Shown: in pieces, positions 7,119 through 50,693 of the stretch
How positions within the stretch are numbered: the stretch's first letter is position 1
Layout: every line of letters begins with the position of its first letter
DNA from: Stegostoma tigrinum
Taxonomy: Eukaryota
Length of the DNA: 64,000 nt
Direction: 5' to 3'
NCBI RefSeq assembly: GCF_030684315.1
Contig: NC_081396.1
Span: 9,167,628 to 9,231,627 of the forward strand
Made by a program: the position numbers and the translations under genes
Notes under the pieces: model-generated
The model's input: the letters and a program-made list of their open reading frames with translations, nothing else
Told to the model about the DNA's origin: nothing
Database searches by the model: none

Positions 7119-7156
7119 AGTTTTTGTACAGTGCCAAGGATATACGTACCATGGTG
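7119..7156 (-). promoter_or_regulatory. V recombination signal sequence (heptamer CACCATG, 22-nt spacer, nonamer ACAAAAACT)
   Basis: Directly abuts the V exon end (TGT GCA GCT GTG AAG). Heptamer 7156-7150, nonamer 7127-7119. Confidence 0.9.
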
Positions 7157-7464
7157 CTTCACAGCTGCACAGTAATACCTGGCCGAGTCAGACACTTGGG
7201 TGTCCGTGATGTTTAAAGGAATGTTTGTGTTCATCATGTCCTGTATGGCTGAAAACCGCTTCACAAAACTCGGTGCGGTGTGTTCATTACCCGAAGTGTG
7301 TCTTACCAACATGTACTGAAGGCCTTTTCCCGAGTACTGCACATACCAGAACAGATCAGCGGCAGTGTATGTCATGGGGTACTTACAGGACAATGCTACA
7401 GTCTCTCCTTCACTCACTGATACTACTGGTGGCGTTTGGGAAAGTTCATTCTGTCGGCAGGGCT
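7157..7464 (-). CDS. TCR alpha/delta-type variable gene segment V1, V exon
   Basis: Acceptor ttcttttccag. Open frame PCRQNELSQTPPVVSVSEGETVALSCKY...LFWYVQYSGKGLQYML...LNITDTQVSDSARYYCAAVK has the Ig V-set Cys/Trp/Cys and DSAxYYC motif, followed by an RSS. Confidence 0.92.
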
Positions 7465-7868
7465 CTGGAAAAGAAATAGTTACAAACATAACTTTTACAG
7501 GTTAACGTTTCTTAAAGTTTGGACGAAATACCGAATTTAATACGAGTGTGCTCAATTCACATCCCTTCCAGAATTCAACGACACAGCCAAAATTTTTGTC
7601 CGTCGTTTTGCACATTCTGGACTATTCACCATGCAAGTTTTCTCTCGGTGTGCTGTTCAGCTGAGAGAGCAGGTCAAGGGGGAATATTCCTTCCTGCAAA
7701 TCTCCCATTCTGAGAGTAACAGGCCTGCTACTTTAAATAGCAAAAGACACTGACGTCTGATCAAAGCCCTAGGATGTATGTATCAATAATAGATAGAAAT
7801 ATAAAAGAAAGAAGATGAACAGTGAACGTAACAAGCATGCCAACAATATAATCTGGCAAAATACGTAC

Positions 7869-7956
7869 TCAGCGGAAACATTATGACGAAAAATAACACT
7901 TTCACAGTCACTGGTTTGGTCCAGCAGATACACAGTTGTCGAGAAGAAACGTTCAT
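7869..7956 (-). CDS. V1 leader exon
   Basis: MNVSSRQLCICWTKPVTVKVLFFVIMFPL plus 1 nt, then a GTACGT donor. Phase 1 joins the V exon in frame, and the exon is conserved in copy 2. Confidence 0.7.
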
Positions 7957-8083
7957 GTTGTTTTCTTAGTCAATTCTCTTGTCTTCTGCAGAGGTGTGTG
8001 CTGGGTGTTATGTTAGTTTTCACAAGGATATAAACACGCTCTTCATAGACGATATGGACATCACATCATATATTTGGCAACCC

Positions 8084-8115
8084 AGCAGCTGATAGGTTTC
8101 ATGGAGGAAGTGGTG
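8084..8115. promoter_or_regulatory. Candidate V1 promoter module (E-box CAGCTG overlapping GATA; ETS GAGGAAGT)
   Basis: Lies ~130-155 nt upstream of the leader ATG. The same motifs occur at 16919-16944. Confidence 0.35.
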
Positions 8116-8249
8116 GGAAGGACAAACAATTTGAACAAATCAGAAGAAACTGCACCTGAACCTCAATGGTGACTTTCTCTAATGACCGCCATTTTCATAA
8201 ATTGAAGTAAAAACCGTTTTCTTTATTTTTGTTATCATTAGTCATTTAG

Positions 8250-8770
8250 CAGACATTGGCGATGATTTCAATGGACGAATTTATTGACCATCCCTAATTG
8301 CCCTACAAAAGATGGGCAAAGTTGAATTCTTGATGGACAATTGTCCTTGAGATGCAACCAATATGTACAATGCCGTATTGAATGGAGATCCATTACTCTG
8401 ACTTCGTGAGAGTGAAGGGGTGGAATCTGCGACCTTTGCTGCATCTGCCATCATTGTGTAGGGAGGGGGAATGTTTATGGATCAGATGCCAATAATGCTT
8501 CCCCTTAGATTGTGTCGAGCTGCATGAGTTTTGATGCAACTAAGCACGTCCAGGCATATGAAGAGTATTTCATTGCTCACTTATGCACTGATGATGTTTT
8601 CGAATCTTTGGGCAGACTGGTTTGATGTGCTGTCTGTCGCAATCGTCGCTGTTGATGCATTTTGCCTATGACAATATTCACATCGATTTCCCAGTTCAGG
8701 CTCTGGATGATGTCACCCACAGGACATTGATCGTGGGAGATGGAGTGATGGCAATGCCATTGACTGCCAA
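8250..8770 (-). mobile_element. Old CR1-type LINE 3' fragment (paralog ~17095-17710)
   Basis: Reverse complement of the tail (tttattgaccatccctaattgccc), plus gatggagtgatggcaatgccattga. Confidence 0.55.
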
Positions 8771-9019
8771 GAAGAGAGAGAAAAGTTCTCTTATTTTTCA
8801 GAAAGTCATTTACAATCCTTCTGGTGGTATTAAATTTGTCTCCCATTTTTCAGACCAAAATTGTTATTTTCCCATTCTCACATATCGGATGCTTCATAAC
8901 CTGATGACCAGAAGAGAAATACATGGAAGCTGAGGATTCCAGTGGGGATGATGATGCTTTGGAAAATGTTAACATTTATTAGGAGCAGGTATGGTGTAGT
9001 TTTGATGGAATAAAGGTGC

Positions 9020-9680
9020 ACAAATCCACGTGGCATCGTGCGATATACCCCCAGGCTTTTTGGGGAAGCAAGGGAGGAGATTTCTGTTCTCTTAGCAGAG
9101 ATATTTGATAATTCCTTTGCTCAAGAAGTGCAGCAGGGATAGGCTAGGTCATTACTGGCAGGTGATTCTGAGATCAATGGCAGTGAGTACTTTGGTTAAA
9201 AAGTTTGGAGGGACAGGAATAATCAACACATGAAAAAGCAGGGATTTCTGAGGGATAGTCAGAATGGATTTGTTAGAAGGAGATCCTGTCTGACTAAATT
9301 AATTGAGTTTACATTTGACTGGTAGTAGTGCTATTGATGTGTCAACATGGACAAGGTTCTACATATAAAGTTAATCCAAAAGGTAAGGACCCACATGGGT
9401 TCACGGTTAGTTGGCAACTTGGTTCCAAAATTGCCTTGCAAGCAGAAGGCAAAAGGTAATGGTAGAGAGATGCTTGGAAGCCTTTGACCAGAGGGGTACC
9501 ACATGAAATGGTGCTAGTGGTACTTGTTCTTCATTGTGTGTATTAACGACTTGGATGTGAATGTATAAGGTACAATTAGCAAGCTTGCAAATTGCAAGTA
9601 AATTGGTATTGTTGTTGTTACTGAGGAAGATGGTCTCAGGATATAGTCTGATACGAGCAGCTGATAAAATGAACAGTGGT
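9020..9680 (+). mobile_element. CR1/HER1 LINE RT fragment (paralog ~17960-18620)
   Basis: gatagtcagaatggatttgttagaaggagatcctgtctgactaaatt (decayed QHGF..GRSCLTNL block). Confidence 0.65.
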
Positions 9681-10699
9681 GAATGTCACACAGGAAAAAA
9701 ATGGCTTCTGAGAGTATTTGGGCCTTAGAATGCATTTAGAATAGTATGATACATGTGAATTCAGCGATTTATAAATGAAATTGAATAGATAGCTGAACTA
9801 GTGCAATTTGCATGAATGTCTTGACCCATCTGAAGCATTGTTCTACAAAAGAGACAAGACTAGCATATTATATTGAATATCCCATTTTGTGTTCTGCAAA
9901 TCTGTGAATGTATAAAAAGTGCAGTGTTAAAATGAAATTATTGATTGTATTGTGGACATATCTACACCTCAATGTGCAGTCATTGAATAATTGTGTTCAC
10001 CAGCATGGTACCCCGCCATGGTAATAGTATTGAGCTAGTCAGCAATGCCAATATCCCATCCGAGTTCTGATCATGGAACAGGGAGTTCCCAACACGACAT
10101 CAACGCATTGTGACAAATGCATTATTTCCTTAATGTTTACATAAGGGATGTCAGTATATTGCAGGGCTTAGCTAGAATTTTGCATACCGAAATAGATAAT
10201 AGCACAATCATCAGTTTTCTTTTGCACACTTAGTTCAAGTTGTCCATTCTGTCCATCATTATCTTCAAATCATATCGCAAAACATGCAATAGTCACACTC
10301 TGCAATTTCATTATCACATACTCAAGAGTTTTTGTTTTCCACCATAACTCTTCCAATCTGTCCACATGGACCTTCCACACGTAAAGAAATCACCAAACAG
10401 CCTTTTAAAGATCGAATAAAGGGAGCACACAATTGCTTGTTCAGGATGACCAGGAAGAAATCGCCCTTTATTTTAAAAGAAAACATACATTATCTCCTTA
10501 ATATTCTGTTTAAACTAAAAAAGAAACTTGCACACTTTCAGCAGATAGATAATCTAGATCCGCAGCGAAATTTGTTTGGAACTGAATTGTTTATCTATCA
10601 CGTTAACAAATTAATTCACACCAAACCGAAGAGAGAATGAACCATTCACGATCCAGCAATCTATTTTCAATGAGGTGGTTTTCTTTTATAAACATATCC

Positions 10700-11025
10700 A
10701 GGCGGCACCTCGCAGCACGAGGGACCCGGGCTCAATGTCATCCTTGGGCCCACTGTCAGAGTGGAGTTTGTACATTCTCCCCGTGCCTTTCCTCTGGGTT
10801 CTCCGATTTCCTCCCACCGTGTAAAGATGTGCAGGTCTGGTGGATTGGCCTTGTTACGTTGCCCCGTATTGACCAGGAATGTGTTGGCTAAGTGGGTGAG
10901 CCATGTTAAATAGGGGGTTGCGGGCGTAGGGCAAGAGGCTAGATTGGTGGGATGCTCTTCAGAGAATCAATGCAGATTTAATGGGCTGAATGGTCTCTTT
11001 TCACATTGTAGGATTTTTATGATTC
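10700..11025 (+). mobile_element. HE1-type SINE (paralog of 2060-2390)
   Basis: ggcggcacctcgcagcacgagggacccggg...gtggagtttgtacattctccccgtg. Confidence 0.8.
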
Positions 11026-11820
11026 TAATGGCTTTGGCCTCGAAATGTTTGCTGAGTGATTGCAGGCAAGTATCCCATATTTCACATTCCATCAGATTTT
11101 ATTCATTATTTCTGTAAGTAAAGTGTGAGGCTAATTCACTGTAATGTTTGTGCCAAGTGAGAACAGGAACCATTGTGTCCTGCACAGGAGGAAGGTACTT
11201 TCAACTTCTTCATGTCATTCTCAGAGTTAATGACGTTGGGGGAAAAAGTATGGATTTTCTGCGGAACACGCAGAAACATGAGAAGCTGGGAACTGCCAGC
11301 AGTCCATAAGGGACAGAATATCAGTGGAATTGCAGGCCATAATATGGAATTATGCCACGATATTAAAAAGTGCTGATGACTTAGATTGAAACGGATTTCA
11401 GAAATTAATTTCCAAATGTTTATGATTTAGATAGACAAATAACTGGAAACATTTCTGTTGAAATTTTAGTTTTGGTAAGTGGTATGAATAAAGTGTGCAA
11501 TTTTAAAATGTGGTAAGAACATCTGGGGCAGTGGTAACATAAGTAGTTGAAGGTAGCAACATACGTTGAGAAAACCCTGTTGAATAATTCCACTCGAGCA
11601 AGTGCCCATCCTTGTGATGAATATGGTAAATATTGACAAATTATTTACTTTGCATTTAAGTGATTTTATGGAGCACATACAGAATGATCAATTGCCCATT
11701 TACTGCAAAAGCGACAAGAAATTTTTACAACTAAAGATTTCTTGATAATTGGAATTAACAGCAGCAAGTGAATGCTGTTACAATTAAACAAAAAGACCAC
11801 CAACTTGTGGCTGGAAACAG

Positions 11821-11898
11821 CGACGAGAACGGGACTCGAACCCACGCAAAGCACAATAGATGAGCAGTCTATCGCCTTAAGCTCTCAGCCACTTCGTC
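11821..11898 (-). pseudogene. tRNA-Ser(GCT) probable pseudogene, copy 2
   Basis: GACGAAGTGGCTGAGAGCTTAAGGCGATAGACTGCTCATCTATTGTGCTTTGCGTGGGTTCGAGTCCCGTTCTCGTCG. The B box is intact, but there is a 4-nt variable-arm deletion, C at position 37 and an acceptor-stem mismatch. Confidence 0.8.
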
Positions 11899-11919
11899 AT
11901 CTGCAGGACGCCTTACTGG

Positions 11920-12210
11920 TTGGCCTCAGAGCTCCAGAGAAATGGTTTTGCTTCCACCATCACTGACTATCTGTGTGGAGTTTGCATGTTCTCCCCGCGT
12001 CCGCATCGGTTTCTGCTTGGTGCTCCGGTTTCCTCCCATAGTCCAAAGGCACACAACCGAGGTGGATAGGCCATGCTAAATGGCCCACAGAGTTCAGCGA
12101 TGAGTAGAGTGAGTGGGTTGTAGGGTGACGGGACTGGGTGGGATGTTCTAAGCGTCGGTATGGATTTGTTGGACTGGACAGCCTGTTTCCACACTGCAGG
12201 GATTCAGTAT
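11920..12210 (+). mobile_element. HE1-type SINE
   Basis: ctgtgtggagtttgcatgttctccccgcg...gctccggtttcctcccatagtccaaag...cctgtttccacactgcaggga. Confidence 0.78.
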
Positions 12211-14653
12211 TTGGAAGTTGCGAGGAAATCAAATGGTAGAAGCATTACATGGGAAAGTATATTTTCCGATTAATTTCAACATCGATTCTACCGAAATGAC
12301 TCAGCAGTCCTGAGGTACCGATTGTTCTGCCTTTACCCGTGTTACTTATTTATCATGCCTTTCTGTTCGGACATTAAAAAAAAACTCTTTTTTTTCATCA
12401 GTTGGAGTAGAAATTTATCGGCAGTGTTTTATATGAAGTCTTTCGTGAAAATATACGACTCATATGTCGCATTGATGCCAGTGGTTCGTTCTGTTTAGAA
12501 ATTCATGTCTTTTTCGAAATTTGTACCAAAAGTTATTAGAGTACAAAACCCTAAATTCATATGCACAGACACCTGTCATAAGCAGAAAACCATAAGCTGT
12601 AATAATTGCACGCACGTTTTTCTTTTATTTCATGAACGTAGAAGTCAAGTTCAATTGATAATAATTTCCATGCAGATCTGTGGATATTGTTAAGAATTGA
12701 GCACTTTTCATAGCATCAGTGACCACCCTCATGTTCGCCATTGTTCAAGACATGCTCCTGCTAGGAACGTGTATAATTGCCCAATCGCACTGACTGCAAA
12801 CACGAAAATGTTACAGCAAGTATATTCAGTTGAAGGAAATATTTTGTGATACCTTAATTCTTTCAAAAAGAGTGGTTCCATCTGAAAGTTACATGTGAAC
12901 TCACCGTGACTACCACCACTGCATAAAATTAGAAATGTTGTCAAGTTCAAAAAGGTTCCCTGTATTTTCGGACGTTACACAGTGGCCTGCCTACGGAGCA
13001 GAAATTGATAAATTACAGGCTATATTTAGAGAGCAGCTAACCGTTTTGCGGACTGTAAGGTCCATTTGAGTATTAAGAATTGTTTTCATGTTCTGGGTTA
13101 TGAAAAAAGAACAATTTTTTGACAGAAAATAAGCAATGGCCATTCATTGTAAAATTTCTGATATGTATATTTCTGTCAGAGTTTCAGTTACCACCTGCCC
13201 CAGATAAATATCTTTCGTTTCACTGCCACTCTTCAACGAATGTGCAATGTTATTGACATAAGGGATAAAACTGTTTCGTTTGTCACTTTTACCATGAGAA
13301 AGATTCCTTGTGAGTAAAAGAGACCTGTCGTTAGTACTGTTTTAACAGCTGACGGCCAGTTGATGCGAGTTGCGCACTACTGCTGTAACCTGACAGGGAC
13401 AGTTGTGGTCCAAAGATGTCAGCACAAAACAGGTGCACTTCCGATTCTAACGGTGGTTTTTCAACTCCAACTGACTCTTAGGTGGAAGAAAAAGGACAGT
13501 GATAAAATGATTTCATCGAAAATATTTGGACACCAGCACACACTGCTGACACAGTTTATTCACACCTCAACTGCATTTCGTGGTGAAATCAACAAAACGG
13601 TGGAGTAGTTTAAGATGGAAATTGATAGGGAAATATTTTCATGCGATACAGAGAATGTTGATGTGGCTAATTTTGCACTCAGGTAATTTAAACTAACAAA
13701 TGATATGGAGGAAACATTTAGGGGGAAACCTTCAGGAGCAAAATCTTAACAGAAAGCACGATAATTTAGCCATTGTGTCGAATTTGGAACCTGAAACAAT
13801 CTTTTTGACTGTTTCACAACCATAAGAAGTCCTGAACCGTTTTTCAGCAAGTTTTTTTTCAGTCACTGCATATTGCAACAGGAAGTATGAACACAGCAGA
13901 CTGTCAAAACAATAAAATGAACAAGAACAGATATTGTCTTGCGGTGGTTTCTGTTGTGGGAGAATATTGTCTGGGGCACAGGGCTCTCCTGCAACAGAGA
14001 ACATCTTGAAAATTTCAACAACCACCTCTTGTCTTTTAGCTCAATTCCAATGTACAAATCCGGGAATAGGAATCGACACCATGCACAGTTATCTCATTGT
14101 ATGTGCATCTCTCTACCAGGTGAACAATTGGTGGAAATCCATATTATAGCAGATAGCAACGTGCTTCTTCATCTGGGTGAGTTCTGAAGGAGCATTAGAA
14201 GAAACAGATGTGGAGATCATAAGATTTATGAAAGGAATCCAGAGGTAATGGGTGCAATGGCTGAAGAAATTACCGCAAATGATGTTGTGATTTAATTCAG
14301 GATGTGCAGGGGCATTGGGGATGTGAGGGTTCATTAAGTATAGACTTAGAGAGGGACAAAGTCATGGAGTGATTTGATGAAAATAAAGAAACGGATGAGG
14401 TTTTTAAAATATTGGTGTTTGTTAAATGGAATACACCAGGGTTGAGAGGACGGGCTCTGGATAAACGTATGATCCTGCAAATTGACAAAAGATTTCTGAG
14501 ATACTCGAGCTGATGAGTTTAAGCAAATCAGATGGTGAACATGCCTGTGCGTGGTTATCACAATGGTAATGGATTCAGAAGTGCAAAATGTGGGAGAACA
14601 CTGTTACACTGGTGAAGCATGCACAGAAAGTAAAGCAGACTATGCTAATACCA

Positions 14654-14885
14654 CAGATAATGGGAACTGCAGATGCTGGAGAATGCGTGATAAAAAGGTG
14701 TGTAGTTGGATGAACACAGCAGGGCAAACAGTATCTTAGGAGCACAAAAGGTGATGTTTCGAACCTAGATCCTTCATCAGAAAAAAATATTCTGATGAAG
14801 GGTCATGACTCAAAACGTCAGCTTTTGTGCTCCTGAGATGCTGCTTGGCCTGCTGTGTTCATCCAGCTCCACACTTTGTTATCAC
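14654..14885. mobile_element. Penelope-derived palindromic element at the site paralogous to 6143-6333
   Basis: agataatgggaactgcagatgctggag...ccttcatcag / ctgatgaagg...tgtgttcatccagc, with two decayed hammerhead cores. Confidence 0.75.
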
Positions 14886-14960
14886 TGCCATTGCCATAAC
14901 TCGAGTACTGTCTTTACATTTTCCTTCAGTTTTTGCAATCAATTTATACGGTAAGATAAA

Positions 14961-15028
14961 ATTTATTGAAATTCAATCACGAAGGAAACAGAGATTTATT
15001 GAAATTCAATCACGAATGAAACAGAGAT
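14961..15028. repeat. 33-bp tandem duplication
   Basis: atttattgaaattcaatcacgaa(g/t)gaaacagag occurs twice. Confidence 0.85.
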
Positions 15029-15950
15029 TGAAATAGTGAAAGGTAGTTTTCCTCTGGGAAAGCCAGTGTAACGACAAAGCCTAGAATGTGTCACGGGGCT
15101 TAAAGTGTCGGATAACATAACGCTGACAAAAAGACGAGATGAATGTGGTGAGATTCTCCCAACCTCGGCGACAACATTCTGCCATATATATACTCCATAC
15201 AGTGCCTTCCTTCATCCCACCCATTCTGCGTTCCATCCTTCTTTCTGTTTACTCTCACTAATTCTATTCCTACACTGTTGATTTATTTGCCTGCAATGCT
15301 TAAATAAACACTGTGGAGTCTCTGTGAGACTATTTCTGCGCAAATAAATAAATTACGGGTTATCTGAACAATGCAATGTGGTTATTATTTAACCTGTCCA
15401 TCTTACAGGATATATCGGCACTGAATCTTCGCACCAATGTCGTCTGCTGAGGTGAGCCATATTGACGTTTCCCTGCTTGTTGGAGAGACAATTGCATGCA
15501 ATTTGTCCTGGTTTCATTAACTTTTGAATTCATCTTTTGTAGAATGTATAAGTAAAAGAGAGTAAGACTTGTCTTTATATGGCACCTTTCACCATTTCAG
15601 GATTTCACAATGCGGGACCACATTTCACCATTAAAGCTGTGTTTGGAGGCCATACTCATTTAAATGTAGTTCCAGGCGCTAGGCTGCACTTCTTGAAATA
15701 CAGCACGAATCTTAAACGTTGTCTGGAGGCAACAAATGAGGTCCAGTTTTACACTTCATTCAAATAATCTTTCAGCACTTGACTGAAACGCCATCCAAAG
15801 TTATCGGCATAAATCTCAGTATTTGATTGTAAAACGTGTTTACTTTGTGCGAAAAGTGGTCGCTCTCATCTACGGCAGTATGGGATTGACAGGATACCCA
15901 GGTCTGGATGAGGCAGAGAATTCATGATGGGCATCTCACTCAGAGCTGAT

Positions 15951-15989
15951 AGTTTTTGTACCAGTGCCAAGGATGCACGTACCATGGTG
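15951..15989 (-). promoter_or_regulatory. V recombination signal sequence (CACCATG, 23-nt spacer, ACAAAAACT)
   Basis: Heptamer 15989-15983 and nonamer 15959-15951 abut the V2 end. Confidence 0.92.
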
Positions 15990-16297
15990 CTTCACAGCCA
16001 CACAGTAATACATGGCCGAGTCAGACACTTGGGTGTCCGTGATGTTTAAAGGAATGTTTGTGTTCTTTCTGTCCTGTACAGCAGAAAACCGCTTTGCAAA
16101 ACTCGGTGCGGTGTGTTCATTACCAGAAGTGTGTCTGACCAGCATGTACTGAAGACTTTTTCCTGAGTACTGCACATACCAGTACAGATCAGCGGCTGTG
16201 TATGTCACGGGGTACTTACAGGACAACGCCACAGTCGCTCCTTCACTCACTGATACTACTGGTGGCGTTTGGGAAAGCTCATTCTGTCGGCAGGGCT
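15990..16297 (-). CDS. TCR alpha/delta-type variable gene segment V2, V exon
   Basis: PCRQNELSQTPPVVSVSEGATVALSCKY...LYWYVQYSGKSLQYML...DSAMYYCVAVK. It differs from V1 at 10 aa and has an intact acceptor and RSS. Confidence 0.92.
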
Positions 16298-16701
16298 CTG
16301 GAAAAGAAATATTTACCAACGTAACTTTTACAGGTAACTTTTTATTTCGGTTTGGACGGAATAGCTAATTGAATACGGGTGTGCTCAATTGACATTTCTT
16401 CCAGCATTCAATGACACAGCCAAGGTTTTTGTCCCTCATTTTGCTGATTCTGGATTATTCACCATGTACGTTGTCTCTCGGTGTGCTGCTCAGCCGAGAG
16501 AGCAGGTCAAGGGGGAATATTCCTTCCCGCAAATCTCCCATTGTGACAGCAACAGGCCTGCTACTTTAAATAGCAAAAGACACTGACGTCTGATCAAAGC
16601 CCCTGGAAGTAGGTATCAATAACAGATAGAGATAAAAAAGAAAGAAGATGAACAGTGAAAATAACAAACATCATAACAGTACAATCCGGCAAAATACGTA
16701 C

Positions 16702-16789
16702 TCGGCAGGAACATTATGAGGAAAATTAACACTTTCACAGTCACTGGTTCGGTCCAGCAGACACACAGTTGTCGAGAAGAAACGTTCAT
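16702..16789 (-). CDS. V2 leader exon
   Basis: MNVSSRQLCVCWTEPVTVKVLIFLIMFLP plus 1 nt, then a GTACGT donor. It is 88 nt long, as in V1. Confidence 0.7.
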
Positions 16790-19642
16790 GTTGTTTTCTC
16801 AGTCAATTCTCTTGTCTTCTGCGGAAGTGTGTGCCGGGTGTTCCGTCAGCTTTCACAAGGATATAAGCCTGCAGTTTATAGAAGACATGGACATCACACC
16901 ATTTATTTGGCAACCCAGCAGCTGATAAGCACCACGGAGGAAGTGGTGGGAAGAACAAACAACGTGAAAACAACAGAAGAAACGTCATCATTGCAACCGC
17001 ACCTGAGCCTCAACAGTGACTTTCTCTAATGGTTATCATTTTCATAAATTTAAATAAAAACCGTTTCTTTATTTTTGTTATCGTTAGCCATTTAGCAGAA
17101 ATTGGCGATCATTTCAATGGAAGCATTTATTGACCATCCCTAACTGCTTAACAAAAGGCGGGGAAAGCTGAATTCTTGATGGGCCGTTGCCCTTGACGCA
17201 CAGCCAATATGTACAACGCTGTTAAGAATGGAGATCCATTATTCTGACGTTGATAGAGTGAAAGGATGGAATCTGCCACCTCTATCGGTCTTATTTGTGA
17301 ATATGATGGTTCTGGAAGGCTCTCCGGATACCTCAGAAATTTCCACAAGCTAATTTATCATTGGTAAGCTCTGCCGTCATTGTATAGGGAGAGGAAATGT
17401 TTATGGATCAGATGCTAATCAAGTGGCTTGCTTTACCTCAGATTGTGTCGAGCTTCATTAGATTGATGCAACTCAGGTCTTCCAGGCAAGTGAAGAGTAT
17501 TTCATCACAATTCGCCGTTATGCATTGATGAAGGTATAGAGTCTTTGAGGAGACTGGTTTGACGGGCTATCTGCAGCACTCTTAGCTGCTGACGCATTTC
17601 GTCTGTAACAATATTCTCATAGTTTGTCCAGTTAAGGTTCTGGATAATGTAGCCCACAGGACATTGATCGTGGGAGATGGAGTGATGGCAATGCCATTGA
17701 CTGCCAAGAAGAGAGAGAAAAGTTCTCTTATTTTTCAGAAAGTCATTTACACTTCTTCTGGTGTTATTAAATTTGCCTCCCATTATTCAGACCAACATTG
17801 TTATTTTCCCAGTCTCACTGTCTTTACATATTGGATGCTTCATAACCCAATTAGTCAGAAGAGAAAGACATGGAAGGTGAGGATTCCAGTGGGGATGTTG
17901 ATGCTCTGTAAAGGTTAACATTAATAAGTTGGAGGTGTTATATATTTTAGATGGCGTGTAGTTGTACAAATCCACGTGGCATGATGAGATGTATCCCCAG
18001 GCATCTTTGGGAAGCAAGGGAGGAGATTGTTTTTGCCCCTAGCGGAGATTTATGATAATTCCTTTGTTCAAGAAGTGCAGCAGGGGTAGACTAGGTCATT
18101 ACAGGCAGGTAATTCTGACATCAATGGCAGGGAATACGTTGGTAAAATGTTATATGGGACAAAATTAATCAATGCATGAAAAAGCAGGGATTGATGAGGG
18201 ATAGTCAGCATGGATTTGTTAGAAGGAGATCCGTCTGAATAAATTAATTGAGTTTACATTTGACTGGTGGTAGTGCCATTGACGAGTCTACATGGACAAG
18301 GTCTGACGTAGAAAGTTAGTCCAAAAGGTAAGGACCCATCGGTTCAAGGCAAATTGGTTCCAAAATTGGCTTGCAAGAAGGCGGCAAAGGGTAATGGTAG
18401 AGAGATGTTTTCGTGATTGGAAACCTTTGGCCAGTGGTGTACCAGATGAAACTGTGCTGGCTGTACATGTTGTAGATTGTGTGTATTAACGACTTGGACG
18501 TGAATGTAGAAGGTATAATTAGCAAGCTTGCGGATTACTTGAAAATTGGTATGTTGTTGATACTGAGGAGGATTGTCTTAGGCTATAGTCTGAAACTGAG
18601 CAGCCGATAAAGTGAACAGTGGTGAATGACACACAGGAAAAAATGCCTGCCGAGAGTATTTGTGCCTTAGAATACATTTATAATAGTATGGTGCATGTGA
18701 GTTCAGCAATTTAGAAAGGAAATTGGGTAGATAGCTGAAAAAGTGCAATTTGCAAGAATGCCTTGACAGATCTGAGGCATTGTTCTACAAAAGAGACAAG
18801 ACAAGCACAGTACGTTGAACACCCTCTTTTGTGTTCTTCAAATCTGTGATTCTATAAAAATTAACAGTGTTAAAATGAAATTATTTGATTGTATTGTGGG
18901 CATATCTACACCTCAATGTGCAGTCATTCAATAATTCTGTCACCTGCATGGTACCAAGCCATGCAATAATATTGAGCTTGTTCGCAATGCGAGTATCCCT
19001 TCCGAGTTTTGATCATGGAACAGGGAGCTCCCAATCATGAAATCAACAAAATGTGACAAATGCATTCTTTCCTGTGTGTTTACATAAGGGATGTCAGTAT
19101 ATTGCAGGGCTTAGCTAGAATTTTGCATACCGAAATAGATAATAGCACAATCATCAGTTTTCTTTTGCACACTTAGTTCAAGTTGTCCATTCTGTCCATC
19201 ATTATCTTCAAATCATATCGCAAAGCATATAATAGTCACACTCTGCAATTTCATTATCACATACTCAAGAGTTTTTGTTTTCCACCATAACTCTTCCAAT
19301 CTGTCCACATGGACATTCCACACGTAAAGAAATCACCAAAAAGCCTTTTAAAGATTGAATAAAGGGAGCACACAATTGCTTGTTCAGGATGACCAGGAAG
19401 AAACCGCCCTTTATTTTAAAAGAAAACATACATTATCTCCTTAATATTCTGTTTAAACTAAAAAAGAAACTTGCACACTTTCAACAGATAGATAATCTAG
19501 ATCCGCAGCGAAATTTGTTTGGAACTGAATTGTTTATCTATCACGTTAACAAATTGATTCACACCAAACCGAAGAGAGAATGAACCATTCATGATCCAGC
19601 AATCTATTTTCAATGAGGTGGTTTTCTTTTATAAACATATCC

Positions 19643-19970
19643 AGGCGGCACCTCACAGCACGAGGGACCCGGGCTCAATGCCATCCTTGGGCACACTGTC
19701 AGAGTGGAGTTTGTACATTCTCCCCGTGCCTTTCCTCTGGGTGCTCCGATTTCCTCCCACCATGTAAAGATGTGCAGGTCAGGTGGATTGGCCTTGTTAC
19801 GTTGCCCCGTATTGACCAGGAATGTGTTGGCTAAGTGGGTTAGCCATGTTAAATAGAGGGTTGCGGGCATAGGGCAAGGGGCTAGATTGGTGGGATGCTC
19901 TTCAGAGAATCAATGCAGATTTAATGGGCTGAATGGTCTCTTTTCACATTGTAGGATTTTTATGATTCTA
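19643..19970 (+). mobile_element. HE1-type SINE (third paralog)
   Basis: Near-identical to 10700-11025. Confidence 0.8.
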
Positions 19971-21507
19971 ATGGCTTTGGCCTCGAAATGTTTGCTGAGT
20001 GATTGCAGGCAAGTATCCCATATTTCACATTCCATCAGATTTTAATCATTATTTCTGTAATTAAAGCCTGAGGCTAATTCACTGTAATGTTTGTGCCAAG
20101 TGAGAACAGGAACCATTGTGTCCTGCACAGGAGGAAGGTACTTTCAACTTCTTCATGTCATTCTCAGGGTTAATGACGTTGGGGGAAAAAGTATGGATTT
20201 TCTGCGGAACACGCAGTAACATGAGAAGCTGGGAACTGCCCGCAGTCCATAAGGGACAGAATATCAGTGGAATTGCAGGCCATAATATGGAATTATGCCA
20301 CGATTCTAAAAAAGTGTTGATGACTTAGATTGAAACGGATTTCAGAAATTAATTTCCAAATGTTTATGATTTAGATAGGCAAATAACTTGAAACATTTCT
20401 GTAGAAATTTTAGCTTTGGTAAGCGGTATGAATAAAGTGTGCAATCTTAAAATGTGGTAAGAACATCTGGGGCAGTGGTAACATAAGTAGTTGAAGGTAG
20501 CAACATACATTGAGAAAACCCTGTTGAATAATTCCACTCGAGCAAGTGCCCATCCTTGTGATGAATATGGTAAATATTGACAAATTATTTACTTTGCATT
20601 TAAGTGATTTTATGGAGCACATACAGAATGATCAATTGCCCATTTACTGCAAAAGTATACGCAAGTGCTTTTGTTTTACACCACATTTGTTTGAAAAGTT
20701 ATTTCACTTAATTCCCTACCCAAGAATTATAAGTATTTGTTTCTGATATAGTGACATTTCCTTTCCTTTGTCCTTCTGTAAATGGCTTTCACAACTCTTT
20801 TGTCTCCACAAAACACCTTGAGAAACCTGTACTGGTTTTCCAAACTGTCTCAGCAGCATAGATTTCCAAAATGACTTTTTGGATTGAATTACCAGTTTGC
20901 CATGACCAATGATTGCTGATAAAATATTTCAATCACCACCCATAAATATTTTTTAAAATAAATCAACAGGGTACCCTTGTTTGCAGTAGATATGATATTG
21001 CTACTTCAATTAACACAAAAGGATATTTGCATCTCAATCAATCGATGTTAAAATGACTGTTCACTGATTTGCAGGAGCTTTCAACCTGAAGTTAATACTG
21101 TGCTCATTTTCGTAAATGGCCCTTGTCTAACTATGCTTGGGAATTCTTTCCTCTCGCATTTGAGGTTCTACTCATCAGATTGGCACCAGTGGAGAGCACA
21201 GCTTGAATATCAAGTTGATAACATCAGTCAGGAAGAGAAACATGTAGATGATTATACTGCGTCTAAAAGTATGAAGTTCGTGTCACCTTTTCTTGTCAAG
21301 TCAAACTGAAGGTATAGAACCTGTTTTACAACGATAGAAGTTGGAGGAGTATGGGCATTCAGAGGCACTTGGGGGGGTCAAATGAACAAAACATTTGCTC
21401 AATTACCCAACCCACTGGAAACATGTTTTCAGAAACCACACAAACACAAACGCCTACCAGTTGGTAGGCAGAAGTAATTATGAACAAGCTTGCACCTTTT
21501 TTATAGT

Positions 21508-23691: not shown

Positions 23692-23789
23692 CTGAAAGAA
23701 AATTAAATCATGTTGCATAGAATTTATTTGCAGCCAACAAAATAATCAAATTGCACCTCATGCATATTTACAGATCATTTTTATTTCGA

Positions 23790-33970: not shown

Positions 33971-34074
33971 TGTGAGTCTACATCCTTATTCCCACGTAAA
34001 TCACTCCATCAATGTATGTTGGAATATTCCTTTAACAAATTGCTTCTGCATACCTTTCACTTCATCTACTCAAA

Positions 34075-37333: not shown

Positions 37334-39170
37334 CAGAAATTTTCTTATTTTGCATGTTGACATTGTGAAATGCTAAACTGAAGATCTAAGTGACTTTGGA
37401 TTCTGAGAGCTATTTTGCTGCCTTGGTCACTGAAGAGAAGTACAAGATTGTTAAGTAAAATAGAAGTTGAGCTGTTTGAGAAACAGGCTTCAGTGCCACT
37501 GTCTGGTGGTGATGGACAATGCTGAGATTATATGTATTGTGAACTAGTTGCTTGACAGTGTTGTCGGGTTTTTAAATTTAGGAATCTGTTTCAACACATC
37601 AGCCAGATGAGTGGCAGTTTTATCTCACCCTGACCGTCGTTATTTTCGTCGAAAATAACATAAAGCTTTACACACAGACAAATGTGTGTTGTTAAACATA
37701 TGTGTTTTGTTGCCTGTATGTGAACAGATATTTGCCACGTATGCCTCTAGTTAGTTTGGTCAGTTATGTTTTCGACGTCTTCTTCGGAGGAGGCCCCTAT
37801 TTTCTTTCCATTCTCTTCGAATTCTCATCATATTACCTTGGATCTCATTGTTCAGATAGATAGGAATGAAAAGACAAAAGACAGTCAAAAATTCGATTAG
37901 TTTTATTGTCACATGTACCTGGACAAATGCAGTGAAAAGTTCGCAAGTCATCACTTACAGCGCCATTTTTTTATGTGCAGTTATCTAGACACAGATTCTA
38001 CAGCCCAAGTTCCTTTTAGGGAAAAGAAAAGGCAATAAAGAGACAAAAAGAAAAGTTCAGTATTGCAGGCCATATGAATCAAATAGAAAATAGAGAAAGG
38101 AAAGTTCAGAAGAATGATCTTTCCAACCCAGTCAATATTGGCACTTAGCCTCCAATCTGCGGCGGCCCTAGAATCCAGACAGCACCGGGATTCACCCTGA
38201 GATTCTCAAAGCCAGGAGCGTGTAAAACAAGAGCCAAGAATTGAATGCCCCTTTAGCTAGACCAGAACTGAAATAATTCAGATATATTTTGTTGCCAATG
38301 TGAAACGTCTGGATGCCCGTCTCGAAAATATGGAGCATTTTTAAACACCTGTGGGTTATTTCTAAAAAGAACAGTGATTATTTTTATATCAGTAAACTGA
38401 TTTATATAGCAGTATACTTTATTTAATATTATCGGTACACTGATTTACAGTTTATTTTTGCTGCTTTTTTTTCTGCAGTGATGTACTCGAACCGCACCAA
38501 TCAAAACAATCGAATACACGGGTTCTGCATTGATACTTAATATCTGTCTTTTTGTAGCGTCTTCACCCTTCTCAAAGGTGATTTGCCGATTCTCTCTCCT
38601 TATTTCATCATGTATCTCTCTTTAACTGTGTTTTCTCTATTGCACCTTATTTCCTTCTCATTGAGTACTTTCTGGGATGAAACATAGCCCTTTGGTGATT
38701 GTTTATAAAGGCAAGATTGTTACAAATTTTATTGTTGGAACTGTATTTCCAAAAGGCAATCATGATGATTCCATGGAGCAGCTAACTTTTAGTAAAACAA
38801 TGAACAACTAATGTATTACATTTGAGATTGGGTTCTTCCCTGTTTTGAACAACGTGTATGTTTGAGACCACCAAATTACTCTATCTTTCTGCACGGACCT
38901 TCATATTAAACAGTCTCAGAGAAAACATAAAATTAAGATATATACGAAGTATGACTGAATGTCACAACATGAAATGTAAACTATTCTCTGCTAATATGCT
39001 GCGGGAGCTTCTGTTCATTTACAGTATTTTCTACAATTATTTAAAACTTAGTTTTCCATTGATGTTGGAATTATGTTATTCAACAAGTGGGCTTTCTTTT
39101 CACCTTGATGATAAAATGTGAGGCTGGATGAACACAGCAGGCCAAGCAGCATCTCAGGAGCACAAAAGCT

Positions 39171-39198
39171 GACGTTTCGGGCCTAGACCCTTCATCAG
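39171..39198 (-). ncRNA. Minimal hammerhead ribozyme motif
   Basis: The minus strand reads CUGAUGAAGGGUCUAGGCCCGAAACGUC. Confidence 0.65.
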
Positions 39199-39422
39199 AG
39201 AGGGGGATGGGGGGAGGGAACTGGAATAAATAGGGAGAGAGGGGGAGGCGGACCGAAGATGGAGAGCAAAGAAGATAGGTGGAGAGGGTGTAGGTGGGGA
39301 GGTAGGGAGGGGATAGGTCAGTCCAGGGAAGACGGACAGGTCAAGGAGGTGGGATGAGGTTAGTAGGTAGCTGGGGGTGCGGCTGGGGGTGGGAGGAAGG
39401 GATGGGTGAGAGGAAGAACCGG

Positions 39423-39880
39423 TTAGGGAGGCAGAGACAGGTTGGACTGGTTTTGGGATGCAGTGGGTGGGGGGGAAGAGCTGGGCTGGTTGTGTGGTGC
39501 AGTGGGGGGAGGGGATGAACTGGGCTGGTTTAGGGATGCAGTGGGGGAAGGGGAGATTTTGAAACTGGTGAAGTCCACATTGATACCATATGGCTGCAGG
39601 GTTCCCAGGCGGAATATGAGTTGCTGTTCCTGCAACCTTCGGGTGGCATCATTGTGGCAGTGCAGGAGGCCCATGATGGACATGTCATCAAGAGAATGGG
39701 AGGGGGAGTGGAAATGGTTTGCGACTGGGAGGTGCAGTTGTTTGTTGCGAACTGAGCGGAGGTGTTCTGCAAAGCGGTCCCCAAGCCTCCGCTTGGTTTC
39801 CCCAATGTAGAGAAAGCCGCACCGGGTACAGTGGATGCAGTATACCACATTGGCAGATGTGCAGGTGAACCTCTGCTTAA
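39423..39880 (-). pseudogene. Penelope GIY-YIG endonuclease domain (5'-truncated ORF)
   Basis: FTCTSANVVYCIHCTRCGFLYIGETKRRLGDRFAEH...HF...RRLQEQQLIFRLGTLQPYGIN. Confidence 0.88.
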
Positions 39881-40532
39881 TGTGGATAGGTCAGTCCAGG
39901 GAAGACGGACAGGTCAAGGAGGTGGGATGAGGTTAGTAGGTAGCTGGGGGTGCGGCTTGGGGTGGGAGGAAGGGATGGGTGAGAGGAAGAACCGGTTAGG
40001 GAGGCAGAGACAGGTTGGACTGGTTTTGGGATGCAGTGGGTGGGGGGGAAGAGCTGGGCTGGTTGTGTGGTGCAGTGGGGGGAGGGGATGAACTGGGCTG
40101 GTTTAGGGATGCAGTGGGGGAAGGGGAGATTTTGAAACTGGTGAAGTCCACATGTGGACTTCACCAGTTTCAAAATCTCCCCTTCCCCCACTGCATCCCT
40201 AAACCAGCCCAGTTCATCCCCTCCCCCCACTGCACCACACAACCAGCCCAGCTCTTCCCCCCCACCCACTGCATCCCAAAACCAGTCCAACCTGTCTCTG
40301 CCTCCCTAACCGGTTCTTCCTCTCACCCATCCCTTCCTCCCACCCCAAGCCGCACCCCCAGCTACCTACTAACCTCATCCCACCTCCTTGACCTGTCCGT
40401 CTTCCCTGGACTGACCTATCCCTCCCTACCTCCCCACCTACACCCTCTCCACCTATCTTCTTTGCTCTCCATCTTCGGTCCGCCTCCCCCTCTCTCCCTA
40501 TTTATTCCAGTTCCCTCCCCCCATCCCCCTCT

Positions 40533-40560
40533 CTGATGAAGGGTCTAGGCCCGAAACGTC
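40533..40560 (+). ncRNA. Minimal hammerhead ribozyme motif
   Basis: CUGAUGAAGGGUCUAGGCCCGAAACGUC. Confidence 0.65.
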
Positions 40561-40839
40561 AGCTTTTGTGCTCCTGAGATGCTGCTTGGCCTGCTGTGTT
40601 CATCCAGCCTCACATTTTATCATCTTGGAATCTCCAGCATCTGCAGTTCCCATTATCTCTTTCTTTTCACCTTTCTGGACTGGATGTAATGTTATAGCAG
40701 AGATCTTCGTGGTTCAAGTTTTAGGACGTCTGCACATGTTTAGTGTTGGCCTGAATTGCAGCAGGTGCAACTGTAGGATTTGTTGACATTAGGCCACCCC
40801 GTTTATTGCTGAGTGCGAGATTGCAGCAGAACATCAAAG

Positions 40840-43556: not shown

Positions 43557-43626
43557 ATGCACGGGGTACCACAAGGCCTGGTATTTGCCATTTATTATCC
43601 TGTCATTGGAATTATTGGGGTTCCAG
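43557..43626 (+). CDS. GPR139-like GPCR gene B, coding exon 1
   Basis: MHGVPQGLVFAIYYPVIGIIGVP plus G, then a GTAAAG donor. It is 70 nt long and homologous to gene A exon 1. Confidence 0.88.
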
Positions 43627-47700: not shown

Positions 47701-48690
47701 TGATAATTGAAGACAGAGGGTAGTGGTAGAATGATGTCTTCTTGATTGAAAATCTATGACCACTGGGTTTTTGCAGGGATAAGTGCTGGGAGTCCTGTTG
47801 CTTGTAATATATATAAATGATTTGGAGGAGGATGCAGGTGGTCTGATTAGTAAGTTTGCAGTTGACACAAGCTTTAGCAGAGTTGCAGATAAAGAGGAGG
47901 ATTGCCAGAGGATATAGCAGAATATATAATACATTTTGGGAGATCTAATGCAGGAGGGCAGTATGCAGTAAATGGCTGAACCAATAAAAGCATTAAGATA
48001 CAGTCAAACCCAAGTCACAGACCCACAGTTTTCTGAAAGTGGAAACATAAGTGAATGGGGTGGGCAAGAGGCATGGACAGTTGGGCATAGAGTATAAAAA
48101 TTAACATATCATGTTGCAGATATATCAACTTTAGTTAAACAACATTTGGAATATTGTGCACAACTCTGTTTGCCACTTTACCAAAAGGATGTGGATGTTT
48201 TGGAGACGGCACAGAAAATGTTTAACAGGATATTGCTTGATTTTAGTACGATGTTGCCTGTTTGGAAGTGTTTTAGCTATGAGGAGAGATTTGACAAACC
48301 TAGTTTGTTTTCACTTGAATGTCAGAGGCTGAGGCATGACCTGATAGAAATTCACCAAATTATGAGTGACAAACATAGAATGGATACTGGGAGCCATTCC
48401 CCAGGGTGGAAATGTCAATTTCTAGGGAAAATAGGTTGAAGGTGAAAAATGAAAAAAAAATTAAAGGGGATGTGAGAAGCAAACATTTTACAGAGTCTGT
48501 TAAGTGCCCAGAATATGCTTCCACAGGAGGTGCTGGAGGCAGATACAATAGTAATGTTTATGAGCCAACTTGACAGATACATGAACAGGCTCAGAATAAA
48601 GGGAAATGGATCAAATGGACGCAAAAGGTTTTTGGTTTAGAAAGATGTCGCATATTGGTGTAGGCTTGCTGTACTGTCCTTTGTCCTTTT
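44760..48690 (+). mobile_element. Large degenerate CR1 LINE (ORF1 SGNH-like region through ORF2) in the intron of gene B; contains an N gap
   Basis: VIGISMVRGTER, VISGLLPVP, LGDFNLP.INW, DFSKAFDKV, LEYCAQL..P.YQKDV. Confidence 0.88.
46318..47025 (-). mobile_element. Younger CR1/HER1 3' fragment nested antisense in the intronic LINE
   Basis: (catagaa)n tail and VEEQRDLGAHIHRSLKVATQVDRVVRKAY. The host sequence resumes at ggagcaaaagggtagc. Confidence 0.85.
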
Positions 48691-49313
48691 CTTTGTTCCT
48701 CATCATCTGCCAGATACCAACGTTTCGGATTGATGCTGAGAATGATCTAGGTAGTATTAATGTAAGATCATGAGATGCAGGAGCAGAATGTCAACTCCAC
48801 CTTTCAATGAGATCATGACTAAACTGATCATCATTCACCCTCAACATTCCTGTCATATCCCCATTATACTTTATTCCTTCCCTGATTGAACATTTCTTTC
48901 TCTTGGCCTTGAATAGCATGGTTTTGGCAGCTGGCTGCTCCTGTACATGAAATGCAGTAGAGAAATGAATGATGTGAGGATATCATGTGCTTTTGTCTTC
49001 TTAACACATGGGGCTGTACCTGAAGCATTGTATACACTAGTTCCCAGATATTCAGCTACGTGGAGAATCTCTTGTGTAAATCCAGAACATACAAAAATAA
49101 CAGAGTAAGGGTTGTGTCATCTCATTTAGTTCGTTATATTGTTTTGCCAATGTGGTCAATCTGCTTCTTTTTCTCCCCTCTTGCGCATCAAATGTCACAG
49201 TGTTGGTTTCAACAGCCTTATTGTTTTCTATTTGATTTTTAAAAAATACATTCTGACATCAAAATCCGGCCTCAGTTCTGGTGTGGATGACAGCTTGAAA
49301 CGTAGTAAAATTT

Positions 49314-49612
49314 GGGGTGGCACGGTGGCTCAGCGGTTAGCACTGCAGCCTCACAGCACCAGGGACCCAGGTTTGATTCCAGCCTCGTGTAACTGTCTGT
49401 GCGGAGTTTGTGCATTCTCCCCATGTCTGCATGGGTTTCCTCCCACAGTCCAAAGACGCGCAGGCTAGGTGGATCGACCATGCTAAATTGTCTGTAGTGT
49501 TCAGGGGTGTGTGGGTTATAGAGGGATGGGTCTGGGTGGGATGGTCCAAGGGGCAGTGTGAACTTGTTGGGCCGAAGGCCCTGTTTCCACAATGTAGGGA
49601 ATCTAATCTAAA
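49314..49612 (+). mobile_element. HE1-type SINE
   Basis: ggggtggcacggtggctcagcggttagcactgcagcctcacagc...cctgtttccacaatgtagggaatctaatcta. Confidence 0.9.
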
Positions 49613-49788
49613 ACTGTCTCCCTGTCCTAACAGATTATTCAGCTTTATGCTTGAAGGGTATCAATTTCACAGTGAGTGAAAAGTGTTTTTCTGGTTGGGG
49701 AGGAGCATTTGCAATAAAATCACCAACGAGCTATTTTTCATTCCTTTATAGTAGTCATTTAGTATGTCTCTATGTACTTTTTTTACAG

Positions 49789-50693
49789 CTAATTTGACAG
49801 TGATTGTGATTCTGTATCGAAGAAGATGTGGTCTCTCTGGATGCATAACATATTACCTGTTGTCCATGGCCGTGAGTGATCTCCTGGTCATGGTCACTAC
49901 TGTGATATTGAGTCGAGTTGCTGGAATTTATTTCCCCTTCAGTTACCTGTCTCTCACACCGGTCTGCAGTCTACGTGCAGCCTTAATCTATGCAGCTATT
50001 GATGGTTCTACCTGGTTAACAGTTGCTTTTACTTTCGATAGATTTGTAGCCATTTCTTGTCAGCAGCTGAAAATAAAATACTGCACTGAGAGGACAGCAG
50101 CGCGAGTTATAGGAATTATCTCCGTTCTGAGTTGCATAAAAAGTTCATTTATGTATTTCATAACTGAGCCGAGGTATATAATTAACAATCTACCCTGGTT
50201 TTGCAATATAAAGTTAATATTTTATACATCATCGGCATGGATTGCATATGATTGGATTCGCTCCATGTTAACTCCTTGTCTCCCATTCATCCTAACTCTA
50301 CTGCTCAACGTTCTGACTGTCAGACACATTCTAGTGGCCAATAGAGCCCGCAGGAGACTTCTTACACAGAAAACTGGAGAGGATCAAAGGGACAGAGAGA
50401 TGGAAAAACGCAAGAAGTCCATGGTTTTACTTTTTGCTATCTCGGGTAGTTTCATTCTGTCATATTGTTTATTTTTTACAACAGTGCTTTATTTTCGCAT
50501 TGCAAATCTTACCTATTTTTCAAGTTCCAATCGATCAGCTTTTATTCTCGAGCAAAGTGGATACATGATTCAGATAATTAGTTCCTGTATCAATCCGTTC
50601 ATTTATGCTGGCACCCAAAGGAAATTCAGAGGAGAGTTAAGAAATGGGATCAAATATCCATTCCAAATAATTGTTAAATTATTTAAATTTTGA
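49789..50693 (+). CDS. GPR139-like class A GPCR, gene B, exon 2
   Basis: Acceptor ttttttttacag. Motifs: NLTVIVILYRRRCGLSGC, MAVSDLL, TPVC, FTFDRFVAI, TPCLPF, SSCINPFIYAGTQRKFR. 905 nt; total protein 324 aa. Confidence 0.92.

Follow-up and report, generated by a model that had tools for sequence, protein, structure and literature searches.

The window analyzed here is a stretch of 64,000 nucleotides of the Stegostoma tigrinum genome (contig C55, 9167628-9231627; figures in Mb are coordinates of this contig unless another is named). As the sequence-only reading had claimed, it holds two intact GPCR genes and two intact V segments whose type is TCR alpha/delta. Each GPCR gene is composed of two exons flanking a phase 1, GT..AG intron and encodes an open protein of 324 aa. 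In GPCR1, on the minus strand, exon 1 (29554-29485) encodes a very short N-terminus and the start of TM1, ending in a phase-1 donor, and exon 2 (23691-22787) extends from the end of TM1 through the stop; GPCR2 lies on the plus strand (exon 1, 43557-43626; exon 2, 49789-50693). Both V segments are on the minus strand. The V1 exon (7464-7157), like that of V2, is of the V-set kind; it is open, with both Cys and the Trp, and follows a predicted leader exon (7956-7869) with a hydrophobic core, a GT donor and a 404-nt intron. This leader was the best-scoring candidate and its type is conserved in four of five related copies; another candidate at 7708-7630 was rejected as too polar. The V1 recombination signal (7119-7156) has a non-canonical heptamer, CACCATG, a 22-nt spacer and the nonamer ACAAAAACT. 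The open V2 exon (16297-15990) is ~90% identical to V1, with a predicted hydrophobic leader (16789-16702) 404 nt upstream and a recombination signal (15951-15989) made of CACCATG, a 23-nt spacer and ACAAAAACT. Both thereby show the leader, the open exon with Cys-Trp-Cys and the 23-RSS of a V segment, the spacer of V1 being 22 nt. They lie in a tandem segmental duplication (6347-20655; 6347-11711 versus 15180-20655, 87-90%) whose boundary falls near 20.65 kb. The gap from the GPCR1 stop to the V2 leader is 6.0 kb, near the ~6 kb given earlier, and neither the remainder of the window nor the 200 kb after it yielded a further V, except for one weak tblastn match near 9.366 Mb, beyond the window.

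V1 and V2 are two of five near-identical V copies at 9.078-9.184 Mb (81-100% identity to V1), and two of the five copies are defective. Contig C55 does carry a TCR alpha/delta locus, as had been proposed: reading its DNA located, at 0.843-0.961 Mb, a J-C block that shares the strand of the window V segments and lies 8.2 Mb from them, with IgH clusters and zinc-finger arrays in between (C2H2 arrays occupy 5.81-6.0 and 8.77-8.97 Mb). Two other regions considered for the J-C block, 2.04-2.44 and 5.80-6.00 Mb, proved wrong when their DNA was read. An exact J-RSS pattern gave five matches versus three in controls, the TCR alpha constant Pfam family had no real match, a J-like motif was absent from 8.77-9.43 Mb, and a weak search found no longer proteins carrying the window V type. 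The nearest other V, at 5.81 Mb, is 3.3 Mb from the five-copy group. V2 was the most distal TCR alpha/delta-type V on C55 among the candidates listed, and no V was found past it on this contig in two genome searches (150 of 262 and 150 of 175 candidates).

In the sequence-only reading, the GPCR pair immediately adjoined a TCR V array at its 5' end. Instead, the V segments sit inside a GPCR array with GPCRs on both sides, since six GPCRs of the same family, without stops, lie 3' of or between the five V copies (9.013, 9.033, 9.057, 9.082, 9.125 and 9.152 Mb). One could still suppose that a very long TCR alpha/delta locus has its true 5' border at the GPCR array; its distal V segments would then rearrange, and the GPCRs would fill the place and role of the olfactory receptors (ORs) beside mammalian TRAV1. 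The distal position of V2 on the J-C strand, followed by a GPCR array reaching 13.1 Mb, fits this proposal, as do intact leaders, frames, CAC and nonamer, and heptamers of the non-canonical type, which are also common in the main V array. There are precedents: distal TRAV1 segments are interspersed with OR genes in mammals (PMC2275272), and, in the white shark, TCR alpha/delta V segments are scattered across ~9 Mb reaching out from the C gene (PMC12227049 Table S1). However, the nearest J is 8.2 Mb away, past the IgH clusters and zinc-finger arrays, the defective copies weaken the case, and the GPCRs are neither related to ORs nor confined to the C55 border. We consider this border model quite improbable.

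The V and GPCR genes were duplicated together as a cassette. A unit of V and GPCR1-type gene is present three times at 9.08-9.19 Mb, and two paralogous cassettes repeat the V-to-GPCR1 junction in collinear order (82-90% identity). Because of this recurrence, and because contigs from four runs (all of one study, possibly the source sample) show flat depth near 20.7 kb with no joint there among the joints listed, the misjoin at that point that had been raised as a possible refutation is unlikely. A second V and GPCR unit, with a GPCR of a different clade, is repeated every ~39 kb at 2.07-2.28 Mb. The V families of 2.1 and 9.1 Mb are nearest relatives (42-46% identity); a joint move of V and GPCR from 2.1 to 9.1 Mb was not supported, since the neighbouring GPCRs do not group (FastTree). 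GPCRs probably stand beside these outlying V segments by co-duplication, and not as the edge of a TCR locus.

GPCR1 and GPCR2 match Pfam 7tm_1 only, are 52% identical to each other, and belong to class A on the basis of 7tm_1, seven helices, D2.50, R3.50 and N7.49/Y7.53. The predicted model of a family relative (P0003) has seven long helices at a mean pLDDT of 67 and resembles peptide and chemokine receptors at TM 0.6-0.7, none being singled out. The description of the pair as GPR139-like has in its favor that GPR139 tops the PDB for the family profile (58.2 bits, next to 56.5 for the TRH receptor); it fails if orthology is meant. The match of a single protein (E 6.5e-4) ranks below muscarinic, CCK and 5-HT1A receptors, and the Trp/Phe site (F3.33, H5.43, W6.48, N7.38) is not kept, the corresponding residues in the HMMER alignment being Y/D/W/N in GPCR1 and Y/R/Y/Y in GPCR2. 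The proteins are not ORs either: neither has any of four motifs commonly recognized in ORs, and no OR Pfam family matched at E 0.001. Trees built without true GPR139 and GPR142 sequences show the family as a chondrichthyan clade with a salamander gene as its sister; it may fall within a GPR139/142-like group. Because of the salamander gene, the idea of a lineage exclusive to chondrichthyans was rejected. A conserved sister gene, other than the salamander one, has GPR139 as its top PDB match (70 versus 44 bits), and Atlas neighbours of the family are GPR139-, FMRFamide- and Srw-like. Many deep subfamilies are common to sharks, skates, rays and a chimaera.

The family has over a thousand loci in this genome. 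A 26-nt family motif had 1,359 exact matches and none in the control, and it undercounts the family because it is present in under half of the copies checked (just 22 of 50 copies from this genome and 24 of 69 representatives). For a second motif the matches numbered 831, versus 208 in the control, the rows listed being mostly other subfamilies, and three protein searches recovered at least 291 distinct loci on at least 46 contigs. Note that identical copies on unplaced contigs indicate that assembly redundancy inflates family counts by some amount. The family was rightly called expanded and uncharacterised; a literature search found no published description of it. Exon 2 was open in 15 of 20 evenly sampled motif matches. 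The five broken exons, the near-identical copies of a recent array on contig C14 and the cassettes shared with V genes are what would be expected if the expansion were mostly a passenger of segmental duplication, few of the compact two-exon copies doing anything. Two patterns argue against such passivity: dN/dS outside the loops was 0.14-0.41 in seven of eight group comparisons with measurable divergence (it was 0.66 in the near-identical C14 set), and the deep subfamilies persist across sharks, skates, rays and a chimaera. We give this explanation little probability.

A distance of 1 Mb or less separates 53 of 247 sampled loci (~21%) from a TCR, Ig, MHC or related C1-set cluster; the stretches within that distance make up at most 1.7% of the genome, and without C55 the count is 28 of 173. 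This excess is about tenfold over a uniform spread, a null that overstates enrichment because multigene families occupy the same domains. Members of the family occur within both TCR V arrays of C55 and between the MHC class I/II genes of C44, a contig with 22 sampled loci; for other copies the distance is 117 kb to a TCR beta-like C, 30-75 kb to IgH C exons and 54 kb to an IgL cluster. These placements, and the extracellular hypervariability of the youngest subfamily, could reflect a repertoire of innate or leukocyte sensors, comparable to FPR, MRGPR or chemokine-type receptors, whose copies stay in antigen-receptor and MHC domains through shared lymphoid or myeloid regulation, with outer loops tracking microbial ligands. 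Against it, no antigen-receptor, MHC or other C1-set cluster comes within 1 Mb of 194 of the 247 loci, eight of 14 C1-set-bearing contigs have no sampled copy within 1 Mb, and large arrays on C58, C61, C53, C56, C13, C14 (77.7 Mb), C9 and C12 had no C1-set match nearby among 150 of 318 candidates; the uniform null also flatters the excess. An immune repertoire is rather unlikely, if a serious contender. The predicted enrichment of paralogs near TCR, Ig and MHC loci is real as an excess, but ~80% of sampled copies lie elsewhere, and, with GPCRs on both sides of the V segments, the pair cannot be taken as a boundary feature.

The signalling face of the family is conserved and its predicted pocket is variable. 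Among 66 family proteins, R3.50 is kept in 66, D2.50 in 65, N7.49 and Y7.53 in 63 each, C3.25 in 62 and the ECL2 Cys in 63. At positions 3.32, 3.33, 5.43, 6.51 and 7.38 no residue exceeds 20 of 66; in the 17 single-copy sister genes, 3.33, 5.43 and 6.51 do not vary. In 14 young copies on C9 and C10, dN was 0.247 in extracellular-facing segments versus 0.039 elsewhere. The extracellular dN/dS of 1.2, for regions drawn after the sequences were seen, is not significantly above 1 (14% of bootstraps were at or below 1), and dS is raised there too; in six other small clusters it was 0.13-0.76. In size, clustering, pocket variability and constancy of the signalling face, the family has the genomic character of a chemoreceptor repertoire.

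Our leading, if tentative, reading is that GPCR1 and GPCR2 belong, as intact genes, to a chondrichthyan family numbering more than a thousand loci in this genome, likely diversified sensors for outside small molecules or peptides, and that they likely adjoin V segments through co-duplication and not through a role in the TCR locus. Birth-and-death duplication would have multiplied one ancestral GPR139/142-like receptor in the unstable chromosome domains that also hold arrays of Ig, TCR, MHC and zinc-finger genes. With its cytoplasmic face constant, every copy would couple to a G protein, and the outer face would drift or be selected for different ligands, as in ORs, TAARs, V1Rs and MRGPRs. A chemosensory epithelium of the nose, mouth, gill, skin or gut may be the site of use. 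We count in favor of the sensor reading the family size, open exons, conserved signalling residues with variable pocket, V and GPCR cassettes, zinc-finger arrays and few catshark ORs and V2Rs. Counted against it are the tenfold excess near Ig, TCR and MHC clusters, which fits an immune role too, V2R-led olfaction in the catshark with no GPCR in a library's top 50, the non-significant dN/dS of the young subfamily with six other clusters below 1, and assembly redundancy.

In its widest and more doubtful form, the proposal is that cartilaginous fishes possess an OR-scale repertoire of thousands of loci, from a GPR139-like ancestor surviving as a lone salamander gene, that would be their main system for outside chemicals or microbes and would have settled, independently, in the neighbourhoods of TCR alpha/delta, TCR beta, Ig and MHC where mammals have ORs. 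ORs are linked to the MHC and TRB. Since few GPCRs and ORs are known in sharks, chemical discrimination with a few dozen receptors has been puzzling, and over a thousand variable-pocket loci under the label 'probable GPR139' would overturn the shark GPCR count. If leukocyte expression were true, a new innate receptor repertoire would exist in the oldest lineage with adaptive immunity. Furthermore, interleaving with TCR V, Ig and MHC genes bears on whether OR-immune linkage in mammals reflects ancestry or shared duplication-prone domains.

Among known systems, the class A orphans GPR139 and GPR142 share with the family a short N-terminus and similar stretches in TM1, TM2-3 and TM7; GPR139 gives the family profile its best PDB match and the family its automatic label. 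GPR139 is activated by L-Trp and L-Phe (PMC5430874). However, GPCR1 keeps two and GPCR2 none of F109, H187, W241 and N271, the family keeps C3.25 and the ECL2 Cys while GPR139 has no Cys aligned at C3.25, and GPR139 is one gene against over a thousand loci. GPR210A/B are orphans related to GPR139/142 in gar, teleosts and coelacanth, in a study that does not mention shark (Rinne et al. 2019, PMC6504862). Coelacanth, sturgeon, teleosts, amphibians, turtles, squamates and sharks have a conserved GPR139-like gene that is one of the family's nearest outgroups and likely matches one GPR210A/B set; it is ~31-33% identical to the window proteins, its pocket is invariant, and sharks have their own copy separate from the expanded clade. 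Like the elasmobranch AgRC, in which scattered TCR V segments between IgH clusters have been described (Flajnik et al. 2025, PMC12227049), C55 has a TCR alpha/delta J-C block, V arrays and IgH-type clusters. The terms GPR, G protein and GPCR are absent from the text of that paper and from its two supplements; for RNA-seq it lists 20 tissues, with thymus, spleen and olfactory epithelium among them. Two studies call shark genomes GPCR- and OR-poor (PMC8455134 and PMC11979771), the latter giving the catshark only 2 canonical ORs and ~32 V2Rs, naming V2Rs its main olfactory family, and listing no GPCR in the top 50 genes of a brain and olfactory library. As in mammalian OR clusters at TRA/D, distal TCR V segments are interspersed among receptor genes (PMC2275272), and, like ORs, TAARs and V1Rs, the family consists of class A receptors that are short, vary in the pocket and form large clustered arrays shaped by birth and death. 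It differs from ORs in lacking their motifs, in matching 7tm_1 only, in its two coding exons and in its peptide-receptor ancestry, GPR139/142 clustering with protostome MIP, FMRFamide and related receptors (PMC8514136, PMC11004728).

As the sequence-only reading had it, the window holds two intact receptor genes and two intact TCR alpha/delta-type V segments. GPCR1 lies on the minus strand (exon 1, 29554-29485; exon 2, 23691-22787) and GPCR2 on the plus strand (exon 1, 43557-43626; exon 2, 49789-50693); each encodes an intact 324-aa 7tm_1 product, and the two proteins are 52% identical. The V-set exons of V1 and V2 are open, a predicted leader lies 404 nt upstream of each, and their RSSs keep an intact CAC and nonamer with a non-canonical heptamer (CACCATG). 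The spacing of ~6 kb proposed between GPCR1 and V2 was recovered as 6.0 kb from the end of GPCR1 to the V2 leader. A near-perfect inverted repeat at 39107-40624 (arms of ~474 nt at 99.6%, self-complementary core of 538 nt) sits within retroelement-like sequence and may be a fold-back or an artefact of local assembly.

The window occupies 9.168-9.232 Mb of a 16.4-Mb contig, C55, whose arrangement matches the elasmobranch antigen receptor complex of PMC12227049, which has white shark TCR Vs spread over ~9 Mb within that complex. Direct reading of the DNA placed a TCR alpha/delta J-C block on the minus strand at 0.843-0.961 Mb (843492-960679). Its transmembrane exons lie at 843.5 kb and, together with a second C, at 944.6-947.2 kb; J-like motifs number 69 at 850-916 kb and 11 at 951-961 kb. 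The alpha and delta labels are tentative assignments from element order and characteristic motifs. The J RSS heptamers are mostly non-canonical (in a counted subset, CACAGCC 18/50, CACAGCA 15/50 and CACAGTG 6/50). V arrays were located by genome V searches at 0.97-2.30 and 5.15-5.81 Mb, and IgH-type multi-domain C1 clusters by a C1 search, with one exon read, at 0.24-0.56, 2.8-4.9 and 8.07 Mb. Dense C2H2 zinc-finger gene arrays (5.81-6.0 and 8.77-8.97 Mb, both stretches read) are interposed between the V arrays and the distal V/GPCR block. Two contigs carry TCR beta-like C exons, three in all (C51, 0.67-0.77 Mb; C59, 6.15 Mb).

V1 and V2 are two of five copies of one V, all at 9.078-9.184 Mb of C55; two of the five are defective, one carrying a stop together with a broken heptamer, the other lacking the conserved Trp. 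The proposed linkage to the V array stands in so far as the group shares contig and strand with the J-C block and the window Vs are the most distal on C55 among matches scored in two genome V searches, but the next V is 3.3 Mb away and the nearest J 8.2 Mb, and a scan of 8.77-9.43 Mb found no J-like motif. The idea that the GPCR pair forms the 5' boundary of the array is weak: six stop-free family GPCRs lie 3' of the window Vs, so that GPCRs flank the Vs on both sides and their array surrounds the Vs instead of bordering them. The distal position of the Vs nevertheless keeps alive the analogy to mammalian TRAV1, situated among ORs (PMC2275272).

A tandem duplication carries V1 and V2, with its boundary at ~20.65 kb in the window. 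A contig misjoin near 20.7 kb, which would have undermined the association, is unlikely because 9.08-9.19 Mb holds three collinear copies of the unit of V and GPCR1-type gene, 82-90% identical over the junction; depth at the junction is also flat (contigs, four runs, one study). At 2.07-2.28 Mb of C55, six GPCR exons are spaced at ~39 kb with a V after each, and in five of these six units that V is among those most closely related to the window V. Their GPCRs form a clade distinct from GPCR1, and V-GPCR cassettes therefore arose at least twice. At 2.12-2.20 Mb, an inverted V-like remnant lies ~3 kb downstream of the V in each 39-kb cassette.

The weak boundary-pair idea still leads to a very large receptor repertoire, apparently undescribed, whose members are interspersed among genes of the TCR, Ig and MHC systems. 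Together, three protein searches, each keeping its best 119-131 matches from 3,398-4,610 first-look candidates, identified 291 separate family loci on 46 contigs. A 26-nt family motif had 1,359 exact matches in the genome (control, 0). Since it is carried by only part of the copies (22/50 own-genome copies, 24/69 representatives, 46/120 named homologues) and a second motif gave 831 matches against 208 for its control, 1,359 is a floor and we roughly infer 2,000-3,500 loci in total, both figures counting pseudogenes as well as identical copies from unplaced contigs. Exon 2 was open in 15 of 20 motif matches sampled evenly from 100 listed (C9, C10 and C12 only), an exon-level count in which exon 1 was mostly not located and whole genes are not proven. 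The suspected expansion of an uncharacterised family was thus borne out at no fewer than 1,359 loci, with no description found in open-access PubMed Central or bioRxiv; public annotations already name many copies 'probable GPR139'. Cartilaginous fishes are described as relatively poor in GPCRs (PMC8455134).

Named relatives were found in sharks, skates, rays and Callorhinchus. From a 90-row tree, which retained 88 of 176 candidates with long coverage, 18 family rows were picked for a 33-row tree; GPR139 and GPR142 themselves are in neither. In the smaller tree the family occupies one side of a branch (support 92/91), and its partner, at 100/99, is a group of three salamander proteins on a long branch. 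This salamander GPR139-like gene (P0220, P0272, P0275) is sister to the entire chondrichthyan expansion, and no further member from bony vertebrates turned up among 30 representatives looked up. A GPR139-like gene conserved in sharks and bony vertebrates falls in a clade of its own and probably corresponds to a GPR210 set of PMC6504862. The best 120 matches list it for sturgeon, teleosts, coelacanth, amphibians, turtles and squamates; their named rows include neither mammals nor birds. In a shark and a frog (P0288, P0386) it is annotated as a TMEM183A isoform, which suggests a conserved arrangement in which it overlaps or adjoins TMEM183A.

Human GPR139 was the best PDB match to the family profile, by a narrow margin, but the four residues given for its ligand site (PMC5430874) are not retained as a set in the window proteins. 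OR identity was rejected, OR features being absent from the window genes in Pfam and motif tests. GPR139/142 are placed beside protostome peptide receptors by PMC8514136 and PMC11004728.

Signalling and structural positions are conserved in 62-66 of 66 family proteins, whereas at five pocket positions the commonest residue reaches at most 20/66; the conserved sister genes (n=17) are invariant at three of these five. Among 14 young copies, dN was 0.247 in extracellular-facing segments against 0.039 elsewhere, and dN/dS 1.2 against 0.4, with the excess over 1 not significant, extracellular dS also raised and the segments drawn after the sequences were seen. In six other small clusters the loops show purifying selection. 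This is the make-up of a receptor repertoire that would deliver a common output through a conserved face and receive diverse inputs through a variable pocket.

In a sample biased to query relatives from contigs numbered up to 64, with 3 of its 247 positions added from the motif list beside the C10 IgL cluster, 53 of 247 family loci lay within 1 Mb of a C1-set or V cluster (28/173 without C55). The 22 clusters cover at most 1.7% of the assembly, with 150 of 318 C1 candidates scored, and a uniform null ignores that multigene families share domains; 6 of 14 cluster-bearing contigs had a sampled copy inside 1 Mb. The expected enrichment of paralogs near TCR, Ig and MHC loci was thus found in part, most sampled copies lying elsewhere; the association with immune loci is a true feature of gene placement, its functional meaning unproven.

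We tentatively favour a chemosensory-type role on three grounds: aromatic amino acids are sensed by the mammalian relative, classical receptors are few in sharks (PMC11979771), and most copies are far from immune loci. The main rival, a sensor role in leukocytes, would fit the copies near immune clusters and seems less likely for a family mostly situated elsewhere. The original observation is confirmed for the genes and not for their boundary place, and its interpretation is partly supported. At 0.56-11.2 Mb of C44, at least 22 family GPCR loci are interleaved with MHC class I/II-type C1 exons. Mammalian ORs are MHC-linked, an association echoed by this mixture of MHC-type exons and family GPCRs.
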